From a virus (taxonomy: Duplodnaviria > Caudoviricetes), in the IMG/VR virus record IMGVR_UViG_3300011008_000038, positions 1 through 64,000 of that record: a stretch of DNA of 64,000 nt; one strand, written 5' to 3'. A program made the position numbers and the translations under genes. Below, one piece after another: positions 1 through 35,653 of this stretch. Within the stretch, counting starts at the first letter, position 1. Each line of letters begins with the position of its first letter. The notes beneath the pieces were generated by a model that saw nothing but the letters and a program-made list of their open reading frames with translations, had not been told where the DNA came from and did no database searches.

Positions 1-1278
1 AAGGAATTATTCTAAACTAATATCATTTAGATACCTACCACATTAGCTTTGGCTTTACTCTACTAACTAATATATTAGCTTTCGATAGTCGTTGAACTTA
101 ATTACTTCAATATCTTTATGTAAATAATTTTTTATGAGTAATTCCATGTATTAAATTACGAAAATGATTATTATAATTAGCATTAAATAATTTAGCAATT
201 TCTTTCATACACATCCCATTTTGATATAATTTTCTCATTTCCAATATTTCACTGTCTCTAAATTTTAAATGCAAAGATTTAATTCCATCATAATGAGTAA
301 AATCATATTGTGATGTAATATCAACCCATGATTTTTTATGTACTCGGAAATTATATAATTGATTACGGAAATTTTTATACAATGTTTTATTTTCTGGAAA
401 AATGTTAAATTTAGCAGCAATATCTTTAATATCCATATTTTTCATCATTAACTCGCAAGCTTCAATTACCATTTCCTTTATCCAATGAATTGATGATTTA
501 TACAAACCATCTTCTGCAGCTTTTCTACTATTTTCAAATGAACTAATTGCTTGTAAATTATGATAATTATTATTCCATTTAATATTATCAATATGATCAA
601 TAACATAATTTTCCGGAATTTCACCAATCCAAGTTTTATATACCAATCTATGTATAGCAATATTTGTATAATGAGGAAAGGGAAATGAAATTCTACAATA
701 TCCATCTTTATCAATATTTCTTTTTCTAAGTCTATTTCTGAATATAGAATATACTGCTCCAGAATCTGATATATAATATCCATTTAAGAAATTTGGAATT
801 TTCTTGAAAATTATATCATTAATTTTAATTTCAGAATCATTTATGAAAATTGGATCTTTAAATTTTGAAATATCTCTAATTCCATAGAATACTAAATTAC
901 TTAATTCTAAAATATAATATGTTTCTAAATTATATATAAATTTTATATCAGATATTGAAAATTGATTTATAATATCATTATTATCATTTAATATATAAAT
1001 ATTTGATAATTTATCAATTTTAAAATTAGCATGATATGGAATATCATATAAATTTTTATTTTTCATAATCATATCACATCCTTTATTTTTTATTGTGATA
1101 TGAAGTAATTAAGCTGCGTAGTTGACCTTATTTCTAAACTTGTTACTATACATATGTAAATAACTATATTATTCATATAGAGTTACACATCCATTATATT
1201 ATTACTAATATAATTTAGTATTTAGAACTTGCAGGTTCGTTCTCGCAATTAACTAAGTTAGGAGACACAGCAAAGTCT
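1..1278 (-). mobile_element. Group I intron in the topoisomerase B gene (3' end lies outside the window)
   Basis: On the minus strand the exon ends GAA GGA GAU (E-G-D). GGAGAU pairs with GUCUCC (1261-1266), giving a P1 helix with a U.G wobble at the splice site. Core elements: AAUUGCGAGAA (P), ACUACGCAGC (Q), GUUCAACGACUA (R, about 85-96). A 13-bp P6 extension (1101-1113 with 97-109) brackets the HNH ORF. Confidence 0.9.
116..1072 (-). CDS. Intron-encoded HNH homing endonuclease (NUMOD4/HNH_3-like, C-terminal HTH-like segments)
   Basis: GYYISDSGAVYS, DKDGYCRI, IHRLVYKTWIG, VIDHIDNIKWNNNYHNLQAIS are HNH_3 motifs; ORF lies in the P6 loop of the intron; SD AAAGGA upstream. Confidence 0.9.
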   Translation of the reverse strand: MIMKNKNLYDIPYHANFKIDKLSNIYILNDNNDIINQFSISDIKFIYNLETYYILELSNLVFYGIRDISKFKDPIFINDSEIKINDIIFKKIPNFLNGYYISDSGAVYSIFRNRLRKRNIDKDGYCRISFPFPHYTNIAIHRLVYKTWIGEIPENYVIDHIDNIKWNNNYHNLQAISSFENSRKAAEDGLYKSSIHWIKEMVIEACELMMKNMDIKDIAAKFNIFPENKTLYKNFRNQLYNFRVHKKSWVDITSQYDFTHYDGIKSLHLKFRDSEILEMRKLYQNGMCMKEIAKLFNANYNNHFRNLIHGITHKKLFT

Positions 1279-30365: not shown

Positions 30366-31274
30366 TTAAACTAATTCTTTTATCATATTAATAAATTCTT
30401 CTAAACTAATAATATCATTATCATCATAAACATTAATAACTTTATTATTCATATTTAATATATCATTATAACATTGAATAATATATGATAATAAATTATC
30501 AGTTTGATATTTACGTTGAGAATCATCAAATGATTGTTTATCAGATAAATATCCTTTTCGTTTATTTGTAAATGTAACTATTCTATTAGTTTGATTTTTA
30601 TCATGTATACTTCCATCTATATCAACAAATATATCACATTTATTTGTTAATATTTTAAAATCCCATCTATGAAATGGTGATACATAATTACTACCGGTTA
30701 TAGGATTATATGGAAATAAATTATTAAATTCAGGATATTCAATAATATTATAATATTGATATATAAATTTAATATTATTCTCATATAATAATTTCATAAA
30801 GATTCCTTCTATTCCATTAACATCAGTTAATGATTTTTCTATAATAGTTTTTGTATATTCTATTGATCCATTATTATAGTTAATAATAAATTTTAATTCT
30901 TTAGCTACTCTATCATCATATAATAAATTATCATATGCATTTTTAATAGATATTGATGTTTTATAATGTTCATTCAATTTTTCATATCTTTTAAATGATG
31001 CTATACTATGATTTTTTCTCATTCTTTGTTTATCTTCATCTGTCATATTTTTTAATCCATTTTGTAATCTTTCGATCATCTTTTCTTTTTTTGATTGATC
31101 AGTATATAGATTTTTTAAAAATTTACTTTGTTTTTCAAATTTATATTTTTTCATACATTCGAAACATAAATTTGGATTATTTCTAAATTTTCTAACCTTA
31201 TATGTATTATTACTAATTTCGTATGAATTACCACATTTATCACAAACCATTGTATGAATTTTTTTACTGCTCAT
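30366..31274 (-). CDS. Free-standing putative homing endonuclease (Zn ribbon plus Vsr/EDxHD-like domain), paralogue of 2671-3585
   Basis: CDKC...LCFEC; FHRWDFKIL...FVDIDGSIHD...DSQRKYQTDNL. Confidence 0.65.
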   Translation of the reverse strand: MSSKKIHTMVCDKCGNSYEISNNTYKVRKFRNNPNLCFECMKKYKFEKQSKFLKNLYTDQSKKEKMIERLQNGLKNMTDEDKQRMRKNHSIASFKRYEKLNEHYKTSISIKNAYDNLLYDDRVAKELKFIINYNNGSIEYTKTIIEKSLTDVNGIEGIFMKLLYENNIKFIYQYYNIIEYPEFNNLFPYNPITGSNYVSPFHRWDFKILTNKCDIFVDIDGSIHDKNQTNRIVTFTNKRKGYLSDKQSFDDSQRKYQTDNLLSYIIQCYNDILNMNNKVINVYDDNDIISLEEFINMIKELV

Positions 31275-31393: not shown

Positions 31394-32790
31394 TTATATA
31401 TCTTCAACTAATGTGTCTGGATCAATGGTTATTAAGTTTATGCTCGAGTCATGTTTAGCCTTCATACCCAAGTTAAGAGAGGTGTATGATAGTTGTATAC
31501 TAAAAAGTCCTGCCATTTGTATATTTAATTTATTGAATAATTCACCTGCACATTTGTTACAAATTTTATCATTCAAACATGTCATTGGTGATCTCATTTC
31601 AACTGTCTTACCAATATATGAATCAATATTTTCCGATGTTAATAATTTTAATTGAGATCCTTCTTTAATGTATGAATACAATAAATCTTTTTTATTTGTT
31701 TTATTTACAGTGATTGGAACTGTTCTTTTTGTTCCACAATCAGTACCAGGTTCATCAACTTGCATCATTTGTAATAAAGCCAATAATTTTTTACCAATAT
31801 AACCTGATTGTCTAACTGCTATACTCATTGGATACTGTGATGCTAATATTGATGCATACTGACTAGGTATATCTTTGATTTCCGATCCTGTCATTAACGA
31901 TGAATCAACAAAATCAAATCTATCATCTATCTTATTCATTACAGGACCTCTCATAATTGCATTATTACGATAATTATTTCCAAAATTAAGGTTACCACTA
32001 AGATATTGATTCATACCAGGATCACCTTCTAATTCTTTTTTGGCATAGTCAATTAATTCATTTACCATTGAAACCATTGCATCAAGATCATGATTATTAA
32101 TTCTTTCACCATATTTTTTCCATAATTCTTTTTTCTTTGCTTCCATTCCTGGTAATGGTTTACTCATCTTTTCACTAATCGTATGGGATAATATACCAAT
32201 TAACCAAAATACCAATGTATCACGATGATTGATATAATCATCAAATTGTGATTTAGTTATGTCATCATTCATTAAGTATTTTCCAATGAGATCATCCAAT
32301 TCTCTTATTTTACTACCAACTGTTTCATTCATATACTTTCTAATTTGAATAGTTCCTGAACCTTGTAATACAAATTTATTGAATATGAATCTACCTATTG
32401 TAGATTCTATTTTTGGTTGTCCGTCGTAAAAATAATTTGCTGGAACTATAAATTTTGACCATGGTTTATATTTACTTTCTTTTCTATTTGCATTTCTACC
32501 ATTGGTAATATCTACAGTTGCAGCAAAAAATTCAACCAACATAGATCTTGTAATATCATCAGGTTCTGTATTTAATAATCTATCAACATCTTCTTTCGAT
32601 GTATCAACTGCTTTTATTTTATCATCAATTTTTGTTAATTCATATGAAGAATCAAATGTGTCGACAATTACGAATTTACCATTAGTACCATTAATGTTTA
32701 AGCCGCTAATTTTTTTATTCATAATTTCTTCACATTCAGCATTTGCTTCATCTGACCAAATACCTCTGACTGATACTGTATCTCCGTCAT
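31394..32790 (-). CDS. rpoC: Multisubunit RNA polymerase beta'-like subunit, exon 2
   Basis: The frame is open upstream of the listed ATG 32722: (T)AT GAC GGA GAT = Y-D-G-D. Bridge helix SGYIGKKLL, DCGT, Zn site RSPMTC...CNKCAG, trigger-loop helix LNLGMKAKH. Confidence 0.9.
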
Positions 32791-34182
32791 TATTTTATAT
32801 TATAAATAAAAATATTACAACACATCTACATATATGTAATCTTAAAAAATTACTGACGAGGAGATGTGTATTAATATGTCATTATCACAATCTAAATTAG
32901 AACGTAATCGTGAATTATTAAAAAATTTTATTTATGATCAACCAATTGATCCTGCTTATAGCATACCATTTGGTTCCAAAGCTTTTGGATGCATATATTG
33001 TATTCTTAATAAAATTAATAAGAAACGCTATATTGGTGCAACATATGCTATATGGGTTGGAACAGCTCATGAAGATCCAATTACACAAATTAAAAAACGT
33101 GCAACTGATTATTTATATGACTACAATAAAGCTATAAGTGAAACTAGTTCATCACAAAAAACTTTAAGACCTATTATAGAAGCTATGGTTAAATATGGAT
33201 TTGAAAATTTTATTATATATCCAATATGTGAAACTACTGAAGATACTCATTATGATTTAGAAAAATATTTTATTAGTTTATATAAAACATTAGATCCAAA
33301 ATTTGGATATAATGTAGTATTTGGTGGAAATAGTATTAGAAAAATTGGAAGTAGAATGACTGCCGATTATAAACGTACTAGATCAGATCCAATTATTTGT
33401 ATTAATCTAAATGAGAAAAAAATTATATTTTCAGAATCTATGAAATTATTTGGTGATTACATGAATTCAAGTAAAGATATGATTAAGAATGTAAATCGTT
33501 CTGCATTATCATATAAGGGTTGGTTTGTATTTTATATTGATAAAGAAAAACGAGATTATATTCTGAATTCACAATATGACCCAAAATTCAATCCAACTAG
33601 AAAACATTCTTCAGAAGCATTAGCTTTTTATACAGGTCTACATAATTCAGTGTCACATTATTTAGATAAAGATGATAAAACAAATAATGAATATTTTTCT
33701 GATTTTGAAGTATTACCAGAATTAAAATATTCAGATTAATATTTTTTATTTAGCTTAATATTTCTATTAAGATTGGACTATCTCTTCATCCTATAATATC
33801 AAATTATAGGAGGTTGGCACTACGAAATATAGTTTTCATTTCCATATTCCTCTCAATTGAAGCAGATTCATTTCTGCTTCAATTTTTTAGTCTCTACATC
33901 TTCTCAATATTTTTTTTAAATATTGAGCTTGACACGGTATTACCAGCTATCTTATAAATAAAATAATTTATAAGACCTCAGGTTCTCTTACGAAGTGTAT
34001 TCGTTTGTTTAAATAGATGAATTGTCATAGGATTCATCCCAACTTATATAACTTCTACCGTTAGCAATATAATCAACTATATATCACACCGCTTGTTAAG
34101 CGTTCACCAACTTTTTCTTATACTGTATTACTACAGTAGATGACCATGACCATTTTCATTGAAACATAGTATCAAGGGGTTT
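32791..34182 (-). mobile_element. Group I intron (IA-like) splitting the RNAP catalytic DxDGD motif
   Basis: IGS GUCAUGGUC (34142-34150) pairs with GACU|AUGAC. GUAA-capped P2; P AAGUUGGUGAA; Q AAUACCGUGUCAAG; R GUAGAGACUA; S GAAGAGAUAGUCC; P9 CUUAAUA-GAAA-UAUUAAG. Removal gives an in-frame 955-aa protein with SGDYDGDT. Confidence 0.92.
32876..33739 (+). CDS. GIY-YIG homing endonuclease encoded antisense inside the RNAP intron
   Basis: FGCIYCILNKINKKRYIG, KKRATDY, AMVKYGFENF, LEKYFI, GYNV match the GIY-YIG catalytic fold; C-terminal NUMOD/IENR-like segment; GAGGAG SD at 32858-32863. Confidence 0.88.
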   Translation: MSLSQSKLERNRELLKNFIYDQPIDPAYSIPFGSKAFGCIYCILNKINKKRYIGATYAIWVGTAHEDPITQIKKRATDYLYDYNKAISETSSSQKTLRPIIEAMVKYGFENFIIYPICETTEDTHYDLEKYFISLYKTLDPKFGYNVVFGGNSIRKIGSRMTADYKRTRSDPIICINLNEKKIIFSESMKLFGDYMNSSKDMIKNVNRSALSYKGWFVFYIDKEKRDYILNSQYDPKFNPTRKHSSEALAFYTGLHNSVSHYLDKDDKTNNEYFSDFEVLPELKYSD

Positions 34183-35653
34183 AGTCGCCTGACATAACTC
34201 GAAGATGAGACGAAGCAACCTTTAAAGTATCAATAAAATATTTTGCGACATCCTCATCTGAAAATTTATAATCTTTTTCTAATCCAAAATATTTTGCAAC
34301 ATCTTCTGGAACATTAACATGTACTTTGGGATAATATTTATATTCTCCTCCATTGTATAAAATATGCTGATGTTCTTTTGTTGTTTCAACATTTATTTTC
34401 GTAAAAAACATACCTTTATCAATTCCAACTGGATATCTAGAAACCATTACATGTCTATTTTTACATGTGTGATAACATGCTAAATACATGACATCACATA
34501 CCGTTAGTGGTCTATTTAATTCTTTATAAACATTATTTGGTAAAATTTCTTTACCTTTAAATCTATAATACACTTCAACAATTTCTTTCTTTCCATTAGC
34601 ATATGTTTTTTGCATTTTCAACATTATTGGATCAAATCTACTATCTGCATTTAGAATGAAATTATTAATCATCTTATTAATATTCTTATCGGAGAATTGT
34701 AATTCTGGATCCACAATTAATCCTTTAACCAATTCTTTTGTTTTCGGGTCAAAAAATTCACTCTCATATTGTTTGTTAATTAAAAATCTCATAAAGAAAT
34801 CTTTAATATAAGCTTTTATGAATGGATGAAATGCAGAAGCACACTGTGAAATTGGAACTGCTGATTCTGCAAGACTTACCATAGAATCTGATATTCTTTC
34901 ATGATTATATGAAGGAGCTGCAATAACTGATCTTACTCCCCAATCTGTTGATTTACCAAGTAATGATCTACGAATAAGTCCTTGTTTAGTTGCCAATAAC
35001 TCTTTAAAATAGTTAAATATATCAACTAACAATGATTGTATTTTTGATTGTGTTGCAAATTGTTTTCTTGCAAATAATCCACCTTGTTGAAGAAGTGCAA
35101 CATTACGAATTACTGATGTGTATAAATTATTTAATTCATTTACATAATCTGAAGAATCTAATGTACCAGAAAGCATGATATCTCTATAAGAAGGTGGACA
35201 AACTAATAGTTTGTTTGTAAATACTAAATCTTTTGGCAATTTTGTAATTAGATCTTTATTAATTGTATCGGCAGATAAACTTACACTCCAATCAATCTTA
35301 TCCCAATTATCATATAAATCATCTAAACCAGTCCACGCATCTGGACCAGAATCTTCTTGGATATAATTATTTTTTATTGAAAATTTTTTCTGTCCTGAAA
35401 CTAAATAAATTATATCTTTAAATAATCTATTCTTCATGACATTTTGATATATGTGTGGATGTAGAAAATGTCTTCTCAAATCAATATATGCATATGTTGA
35501 TAGACGATCAGTTCTACTTAATCCAAATATTGAATTTGATAGAATACCTTCATCATCAAAAGTCATCTTTGTAGAAAACAGATGAGGAGATGATACTTCT
35601 TTTAATGAATTAACATCTACCAATTTATCAATATTTAATATTTCGATTTTCAA
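34183..35653 (-). CDS. rpoC: Multisubunit RNA polymerase beta'-like subunit, exon 1
   Basis: GILSNSIFG, YAYIDL, LVCPPSYRD, GLIRRSLLGKSTDWGVRSVI (beta' region C), SRYP; ends S-G-D-T( ) at the intron. TTG start. Confidence 0.92.

Follow-up and report, generated by a model that had tools for sequence, protein, structure and literature searches.

Layout of the locus

The stretch of DNA analysed here (the window) comprises 64,000 nucleotides (nt), positions 1 to 64,000 of the IMG/VR virus record IMGVR_UViG_3300011008_000038, from a virus of the Caudoviricetes (Duplodnaviria). On its minus strand lies a gene resembling that for the beta' subunit of a virion RNA polymerase (RNAP), which is interrupted by a group I intron of 1392 nt, and the 3' part of this intron carries, on the opposite strand, a gene for a GIY-YIG homing endonuclease. 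A sequence-only reading of the window had proposed this antisense layout and our analysis confirmed it: the group I intron and the opposite-strand open reading frame (ORF) both held up. The main features of the locus, in window coordinates, are as follows.

34183..35653, minus strand: exon 1 of the virion-RNAP beta'-like gene (PHROG 2986, E 2e-62)
32791..34182, minus strand (read 34182..32791): group I intron, IA-like, with P7.1/P7.2; based on junction, guide pairing, covariation and intron-less alleles
34139..34151, minus strand: internal guide sequence GGUCAUGGUCAUC, read by eye
33888..33897, minus strand: R element GUAGAGACUA with the P7 5' strand AGACUA, invariant in 13 of 13 aligned introns
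33775..33782, minus strand: S element GAUAGUCC with the P7 3' strand, invariant save one G/U position
33754..33771, minus strand: P9 hairpin CUUAAUAGAAAUAUUAAG, read by eye and also present in the relative L002
32791, minus strand: last intron base (omega), which is A, not G
31394..32790, minus strand: exon 2, beta' C-terminal part (PHROG 2962, E 2e-51)
32858..32863, plus strand: Shine-Dalgarno (SD) sequence GAGGAG, with the start codon 12 nt after it
32876..33739, plus strand: GIY-YIG homing endonuclease gene of 287 amino acids (aa), antisense to the intron

The insertion point of the intron is the DYDGD catalytic motif. Exon 1, whose closest counterpart in phage AR9 is g145, the N-terminal subunit of the virion RNAP beta', ends in ...HLRVMSGD plus a U, the first base of a Tyr codon, while exon 2 opens with AU GAC GGA GAU, that is (Y)DGD, and continues as ...DGDTVSVRGIW. 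Ligation of GACU to AUGAC regenerates SGD-Y-DGD, the universal DxDGD metal-binding motif. The guide GGUCAU-GGUC (34151-34142) consists of two adjoining halves that pair with both exon ends, P10 (GUCAU:AUGAC of exon 2) being contiguous with P1 (GGUC:GACU of exon 1). As read by eye and not scored, P1 has a U.G pair at the 5' splice site and its guide covaries with the exon across relatives (GCG/CGC, GCC/GGC, GGG/CCC and GCA/UGC). Rfam gave no group I match (RF00028), either at the gathering threshold or at E-values up to 10, and the fold was therefore tested by comparative structure instead. The RNAalifold consensus of 13 homologous introns recovered P2, P3, P4, P5, P6 and P8, and compensatory changes, in which both sides are altered and pairing is kept, were present in 44 of the 68 consensus pairs. 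P7, with the consensus GUAGAGACUA and GA(G/U)AUAGUCC, is invariant in the alignment and hence gives no covariation support. On this comparative evidence, the group I intron and its core are shown to be real, and the intron is predicted to be self-splicing.

The plus-strand ORF spans 32864-33739, and the N-termini of its homologues together with the SD spacing place the true start at 32876. This gives a protein of 287 aa, not the 288 aa of the sequence-only reading, whose description of the gene as GIY-YIG otherwise agrees with its PHROG matches and I-TevI-like fold. The protein matches the PHROG 'homing endonuclease' entries 314, 7168 and 5123 (E 2e-13 to 7e-9), and PF19835 (SegE_GIY-YIG) was matched weakly by 15/15 members of its family, with E up to 0.01. 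Besides its own database entry, we found 14 full-length homologues of 284-294 aa at 37-73% identity. Residues Y45, Y56-I57-G58, R102, E133 and N150 are invariant across the family and, in our reading by analogy with I-TevI, would represent the GIY, YIG, Arg, Glu and Asn catalytic set; a C-terminal block, SMKLFGDYMNSSKDMIKN..R....YKGWF.FY, is also strongly conserved. An AlphaFold (AF2) model built from the family alignment had a predicted local distance difference test (pLDDT) score of 84. Its top Foldseek matches were the I-TevI catalytic domain structures 1LN0 and 1MK0 (template modelling score 0.74-0.76 of target, with E-values >1e-3 despite a probability of 1.0), followed by other GIY-YIG nucleases, and a PDB profile search gave a marginal I-TevI match (E 0.49). 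Pairwise ratios of non-synonymous to synonymous substitution rates (dN/dS) in the ORF family were 0.08-0.44. Comparison within the family thus showed the ORFs to represent a real gene under purifying selection, and the enzyme is predicted to cleave the intron-less allele. One homologue (L018:39-898) is broken into two frames near residue 80 and is either a decayed copy or the result of a sequencing error.

Conservation and mobility of the arrangement

A search with the endonuclease family retrieved 18 loci, and in 13 of these the same RNAP exons and the ribozyme lie opposite and abut the endonuclease gene (L002, L003, L005, L006/7, L009, L010, L011, L012, L013, L015, L016, L017 and L018). The exons of these loci are 45-78% identical to those of the window, and the loci stem from different metagenomes and assemblers, representing uncultured phages. 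Because the same arrangement recurs in 13 independent metagenomic loci, both chance and the assembly inversion at the ORF borders that the sequence-only reading had allowed for are excluded. A 228-nt contig of run X1, probably the source sample, is identical to the window over 32707-32934. Low-depth read contigs, again probably from the source sample, span the 3' splice site with the ORF start as well as the 5' splice site, leaving 33773-33839 uncovered.

Alleles without the intron were found by an alignment query with exon 2, a single-protein exon 2 query giving two distant loci only. In L025/26, L027, L030 and L052 the gene is uninterrupted and contiguous at the exact insertion site, reading GGT GCx GAY TAY GAY GGT GAY. 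Intron-plus and intron-less alleles are interleaved in the exon tree, where the intron-bearing L003 is sister to the intron-less L027 with full support, and the exons of L016, which has the intron, are near-identical to those of L037, which is without the main intron. Among the retrieved loci, no ORF-less or sense-ORF copy of the intron was found at the beta' site. The intron and the ORF are therefore gained or lost jointly, pointing to a unit that is still homing or is precisely lost and, as expected, the pattern of presence and absence fits an active homing element.

Some of these loci carry a second, small group I intron without an ORF, located 7-8 nt upstream of the main intron and separated from it by a micro-exon, GGUGACU or GGCCGAUU.

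L017:2330-2560, minus strand: small upstream intron
L012:2290-2400: small upstream intron
L037:5800-6000: small upstream intron

Both introns are present in L017 and L012, and the small intron only in L037. Yet another ORF-less intron lies a few codons upstream in L028 (L028:5620-6000). The occurrence of at least three different introns within ~10 nt shows the DxDGD codons to be an intron insertion hotspot.

Position of the gene within the ribozyme and the 3' end of the intron

As the sequence-only reading had it, the endonuclease gene fills the segment from P9 to the 3' splice site: its stop codon (33737-33739) lies 15 nt past the P9 hairpin and its start 85 nt from the 3' splice site. In several relatives the distance from the stop codon to the P7 3' strand is within 10-30 nt. 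The last ~60 nt of the intron pair with the segment directly after P7/P9, and the arm concerned in the window is the following.

32804..32817, minus strand: 3' arm UAAUAUUUUUAUUU of the helix closing the ORF loop, pairing by eye with AAAUAAAAAAUAUUA at 33737-33751

Prediction of the closing duplex is weak in the window, where 29 of 300 shuffles were as good. Closing duplexes far better than shuffles, and with differing sequences, were obtained in L002, L003, L005, L006, L009 and L015. These duplexes indicate a long terminal helix from which the ORF protrudes as a loop and which returns the 3' splice site to the core; intron ORFs are usually accommodated in this way, apart from the backward reading direction.

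The intron ends in ...AAAAUA, directly before AUGAC, a junction that is fixed by P10. Taking the G three bases downstream as the intron end was rejected, as this would delete an Asp. The sequence-only reading had suggested comparing the 3' termini of related introns and had attributed the omega-A to an inverted insertion replacing the original 3' end. An omega-G is found in eight relatives with the same antisense ORF (L002, L003, L005, L006/7, L009, L010, L016 and L017), whereas L015 (L015:3917) also has an omega-A, independently of the window. The inverted ORF thus does not explain the omega-A, given that an omega-G accompanies the antisense ORF in these eight relatives. No change compensating for the omega-A was seen in the guanosine-binding helix P7, which is identical in all aligned introns.

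Candidate expression signals of the endonuclease gene

The genome to which the window belongs is a mosaic of short, oppositely directed units, typical of RNAP-encoding jumbo phages. Since the endonuclease gene is antisense to its surroundings and the 4 kb upstream of the ORF are free of plus-strand genes, it must form its own transcription unit. Its own GAGGAG SD sequence, already pointed out from the window, has counterparts in the relatives, as 10/10 of those read at the 5' region have an SD-like purine run before the start codon, of varying but mostly high strength. A recurrent intergenic motif, AATGATATATTAT(T)AAT, was found at ~14 clear sites located 21-114 nt (mostly 43-114) upstream of genes and often paired back to back. 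It closely resembles the early promoter defined experimentally for the AR9 virion RNAP, AAATATATATTAT-N6-G (PMC5312081). Positions of the motif and of the candidate signals around the endonuclease gene are listed below.

7205 (-), 18297 (+), 30355 (-), 36258 (+), 48723 (-), 48736 (+), 51580 (-), 52847 (+) and 61570 (-): AATGATATATTAT(T)AAT sites in the window
68174 (-) and 69197 (-): AATGATATATTAT(T)AAT sites in the contig beyond the window
32796..32803, plus strand: candidate endonuclease promoter TATATTAT, a weak match to the AATGATATATTAT early-promoter-like motif
32812..32877, plus strand: hairpin of ACACAUCU with AGAUGUGU, covering part of the SD and start region (-15.8 kcal/mol, z -2.4)
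33855..33884, plus strand: terminator-like hairpin with a stem of 12 base pairs followed by TTTT, 115 nt past the ORF stop; putative function

A convergent promoter near 32790-32850 had been postulated by the sequence-only reading. The status of the gene as its own unit and the AT-rich element at 32796-32803, part of an AT-rich intron tail that reads TTTATATTAT at 32794-32803, accord with this proposal, but the element scores poorly against the motif (3.1; see below). In the intron tails of relatives, the early-type motif is strong in L005 and L006 (0 and 4 of 500 shuffles, respectively) and modest in L009. From these patterns a promoter in the intron tail is likely, although its class may differ between phages. 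A late-promoter reading of the tail was also considered and rejected: ACAACA, present in the tails of the window, L002, L016 and L017, resembles the AR9 AACA-N6-T(A/G), but the spacing fits L016 only. No ACAACA-type k-mer was enriched upstream of the genes of the contig, and sites retrieved by a sigma-70 scan were no commoner than in shuffles.

On the intron strand, the terminator-like hairpin corresponds to an enlarged P7.1 stem-loop, which is inserted only in the window and L002. Another terminator-like insertion, of different sequence and GC-rich, is located in L8 of L009. Judged by sequence, these P7.1 and L8 insertions look like terminators placed in tolerant ribozyme loops. The helix of ACACAUCU and AGAUGUGU can also form in the intron RNA; a hairpin sequestering the ribosome-binding site (RBS) was rejected as a conserved feature, being not kept in L002, L003 and L009. 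As for the host gene, no strong early motif was noted upstream of it on its own strand, and g189, the other virion RNAP gene of AR9, is described as late. By analogy with AR9, the host RNAP gene is probably late.

A second backbone, a paralogous gene and sense relatives

Members of the endonuclease clade of the window are also found antisense, right after the P7 3' strand, in a type-B backbone (GUUCAGAGACUA...GAAGAUAUAGUCC), where the intron occupies the homologous NAD-F-DGD site of a paralogous beta' gene (PHROG 2987), in L014 and L008. The paralogue copies are nested among the virion-RNAP copies in the endonuclease tree, and the cassette has therefore moved between backbones and paralogues while staying antisense. 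A search with a 20-nt core motif showed that 64 viral contigs carry the ribozyme family. Most of the ORF-bearing members have sense ORFs in L6, among them GIY-YIG genes 27-36% identical to that of the window (L019, L073, L098, L115 and L131), and the antisense post-P7 layout is restricted, among these 64 contigs, to the clade of the window and L120, whose antisense GIY-YIG gene shows 30% identity. In L019 (L019:3690-4910) a related intron interrupts the paralogous beta' gene (NAD-F-DGD), and its GIY-YIG gene, of 33% identity, lies in sense orientation in loop L6, so that both orientations exist at a homologous site.

In a further contig, L004 (L004:3860-5360), the endonuclease gene links the end of a paralogue-type exon (..PGLNAD) with an exon 2 of the virion type, and L011 (L011:1-925), from the same sample, begins inside the endonuclease gene. 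L004 was probably assembled as a chimera, which implies that one phage has two near-identical copies of the endonuclease gene, one in each RNAP paralogue.

A member of the ribozyme family was also observed, unannotated and in another gene, in Enterocloster phages in GenBank. In Enterocloster phage CB473P3 (L001:3540-4180; OP172757.1, between CDS 00068 and 00069), the intron has a small sense ORF resembling a helix-turn-helix remnant, and a second interruption just upstream bears an I-HmuI-like gene. In the window, a 302-aa ORF with an N-terminal CxxC...CxxC (30366-31274, minus strand) lies directly downstream of the RNAP gene and had no Pfam and no clear PHROG match.

Interpretation of the backward gene

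We consider it likely that the ORF is a functional GIY-YIG gene and an autonomous, backwards unit in the P9 loop of a mobile intron that splits the DxDGD motif of a jumbo-phage beta' gene. The gene would be transcribed from its own phage-type promoter in the intron 3' tail and translated from its own SD sequence and, in the window phage, the transcript would end at the plus-strand terminator-like hairpin within P7.1. The enzyme would cut intron-less beta' alleles of co-infecting relatives, upon which the intron and its gene would be copied in (homing); competition between phages would be possible too, as for gp210 of phage PhiPA3. The backward direction may uncouple expression of the endonuclease from that of a probably late host gene, and may keep ribosomes off the intron RNA, leaving the ribozyme free to fold. 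As a cost, sense and antisense RNA might pair along the 3' half of the intron, and such pairing would have to be kept in check by low expression, by termination or by timing, through temporal separation of the two transcripts.

Several observations weigh against this interpretation. The protein scores 20.7 bits against Pfam PF01541 (GIY-YIG), just under the gathering cut-off of 22.6. The promoter match in the window is weak, as TATATTAT has a position weight matrix score of 3.1, compared with ≥17.9 for the 14 clear sites, ranks 157 of ~174,000 positions and was equalled in 30 of 500 shuffles. The AR9 virion RNAP is reported to tolerate little deviation from its consensus (PMC5312081), and the early-type motif is missing from the tails of six relatives. 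The count of terminator-like hairpins, one, is near the shuffle expectation (0.4 expected). Finally, with an omega-A and an unchanged P7, the window copy may splice poorly.

An extension that we regard as doubtful is that the backwards cassettes constitute a distinct and stable design of phage intron. An early nuclease gene would be lodged, in antisense direction, in the last loop of an intron of a late gene, and its transcript would brake splicing of the virion RNAP message until late infection. The mobile cassette would extend from the P7 3' strand up to the DGD codons and would move between backbones and RNAP paralogues.

The antisense orientation might instead be chiefly regulatory, with the endonuclease mRNA blocking or timing the splicing of the virion RNAP beta' message. 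Such an mRNA would be complementary to ~1 kb of the pre-mRNA, including P7 3', P8, P9 and the 3' splice site, and if transcription began at ~32810 and reached the hairpin at 33884, the RNA could base-pair with the 3' half of the catalytic core (P7 3', P8, P3' and the splice site). The layout is, moreover, stable across deep divergence. However, a mobile unit that is simply inherited would preserve the layout just as well, the intron-less relatives manage without such control and the ORF evolves like a protein-coding gene, and we find a chiefly regulatory role unlikely.

It appears very unlikely that the gene is a decaying or silent passenger, in which an inversion trapped a promoterless endonuclease that is no longer expressed. 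The weak promoter match in the window, the L018 copy in two reading frames and the omega-A, suggestive of a declining copy, would be in line with such a fate. Nevertheless, the homologues are full length, their catalytic residues are invariant at 37-73% identity, dN/dS is well below 1 and the SD-like runs are kept, while the presence of the element in one phage and its absence from a near-identical one imply that it moved recently or was precisely lost.

We give practically no credence to an assembly artefact, whereby the assembler would have inverted the ORF segment at short border inverted repeats. AT-rich inverted repeats do lie beside the ORF (32804-32817 with 33737-51, by eye, with flanking pairs in relatives), and the relative contig L004 looks chimeric through a duplicated endonuclease gene. 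Yet the orientation is the same in the 13 loci from different metagenomes and assemblers, the run X1 contig, probably of the source sample, crosses exon 2, the 3' splice site and the ORF start unchanged, and no sense-oriented version of the intron of the window was found. That there is no intron at all, but two separate RNAP subunit genes around a free-standing endonuclease gene, has hardly any probability: although jumbo-phage beta' genes are naturally split (PMC7598289) and Rfam was without a group I match, the split would fall within DxDGD, the core covaries, P1/P10 fit the junction and relatives carry an uninterrupted gene.

Comparison with known systems

In the literature consulted, endonuclease genes of phage and bacterial group I introns are described as co-oriented with their introns, and their expression must be reconciled with folding of the ribozyme. 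The sequence-only reading took co-orientation as the rule, in agreement with the sense endonucleases of AR9 and with the mostly sense L6 ORFs of the ribozyme family. The HNH gene of the window (116-1072), which it cited as an example, is indeed co-oriented with its gyrase B-like neighbour, the comparison being with this neighbouring gene. No antisense endonuclease was found in the literature for phage or bacterial group I introns, which, as coverage was incomplete, is absence of evidence only. Orientation is not addressed in a 2014 review of bacterial group I introns, and a T4 review takes up antisense solely in connection with the free-standing segD.

Like the intron of the window, the T4 introns nrdD (sunY)/I-TevII and td/I-TevI are phage group IA introns with an ORF looped from a peripheral stem, and the sunY intron ORF lies near the intron 3' end. 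The GIY-YIG enzyme I-TevI shares its catalytic fold with the modelled enzyme of the window, in whose C-terminal half no match to the I-TevI DNA-binding modules was detected. The T4 ORFs are co-oriented with the intron, whereas that of the window is antisense. In T4, expression of the intron endonuclease is separated from that of the host gene by its own (late) promoter and by RBS-sequestering hairpins (PMC2988022).

The virion RNAP introns of AR9 (g145 with g146 and g147; g189 with g190) occur in the same kind of phage and in an orthologous host gene, but their endonucleases are on the sense strand and their insertion sites are others. In AR9 (L021; 118211-123163), g145 is joined from three pieces with two sense endonuclease genes (g147 and g146), and its first intron is at another site, after ~residue 409 of exon 1 of the window. 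The virion RNAP beta intron of PhiPA3 with gp210 (HNH) is located, as in the window, at codons for catalytic Asp residues in the virion RNAP of a jumbo phage, and gp210 targets the intron-less allele of a competing phage (PMC11620839). In contrast to the enzyme of the window, gp210 is an HNH nickase, and its subunit and site differ; the words orientation, antisense and opposite do not occur in that paper (PMC11620839).

The DFDGD codons of jumbo-phage RNAPs thus emerge as a hotspot of mobile introns, in which one endonuclease clade serves both RNAP paralogues, with relevance to intron-mediated competition among co-infecting jumbo phages. Such loci are at risk of misannotation, as gene callers read them as two RNAP fragments and an unrelated gene on the opposite strand. 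They also represent a natural system for the coexistence of convergent transcription, antisense pairing and splicing inside an essential gene.

Antisense endonuclease genes with their own promoters are carried by nuclear ribosomal DNA (rDNA) group I introns, as in I-DirII and the L2066 introns (PMC3073962, PMC9548176). In introns of the I-DirII type (Didymium S956-2; L2066; His-Cys box), the endonuclease gene is opposite to the group I intron, as in the window, and has its own promoter, which in the window phage is presumed. The I-DirII type is eukaryotic, with Pol I-transcribed rRNA genes as hosts, a His-Cys box enzyme, a Pol II promoter, spliceosomal introns and poly(A), whereas the window combines a phage protein-coding host gene with a GIY-YIG enzyme, a bacterial-type SD sequence and phage-type promoter candidates. 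The conserved backwards family described here shows that the antisense solution, known from protist and fungal nuclear rDNA introns, also arose in phages.

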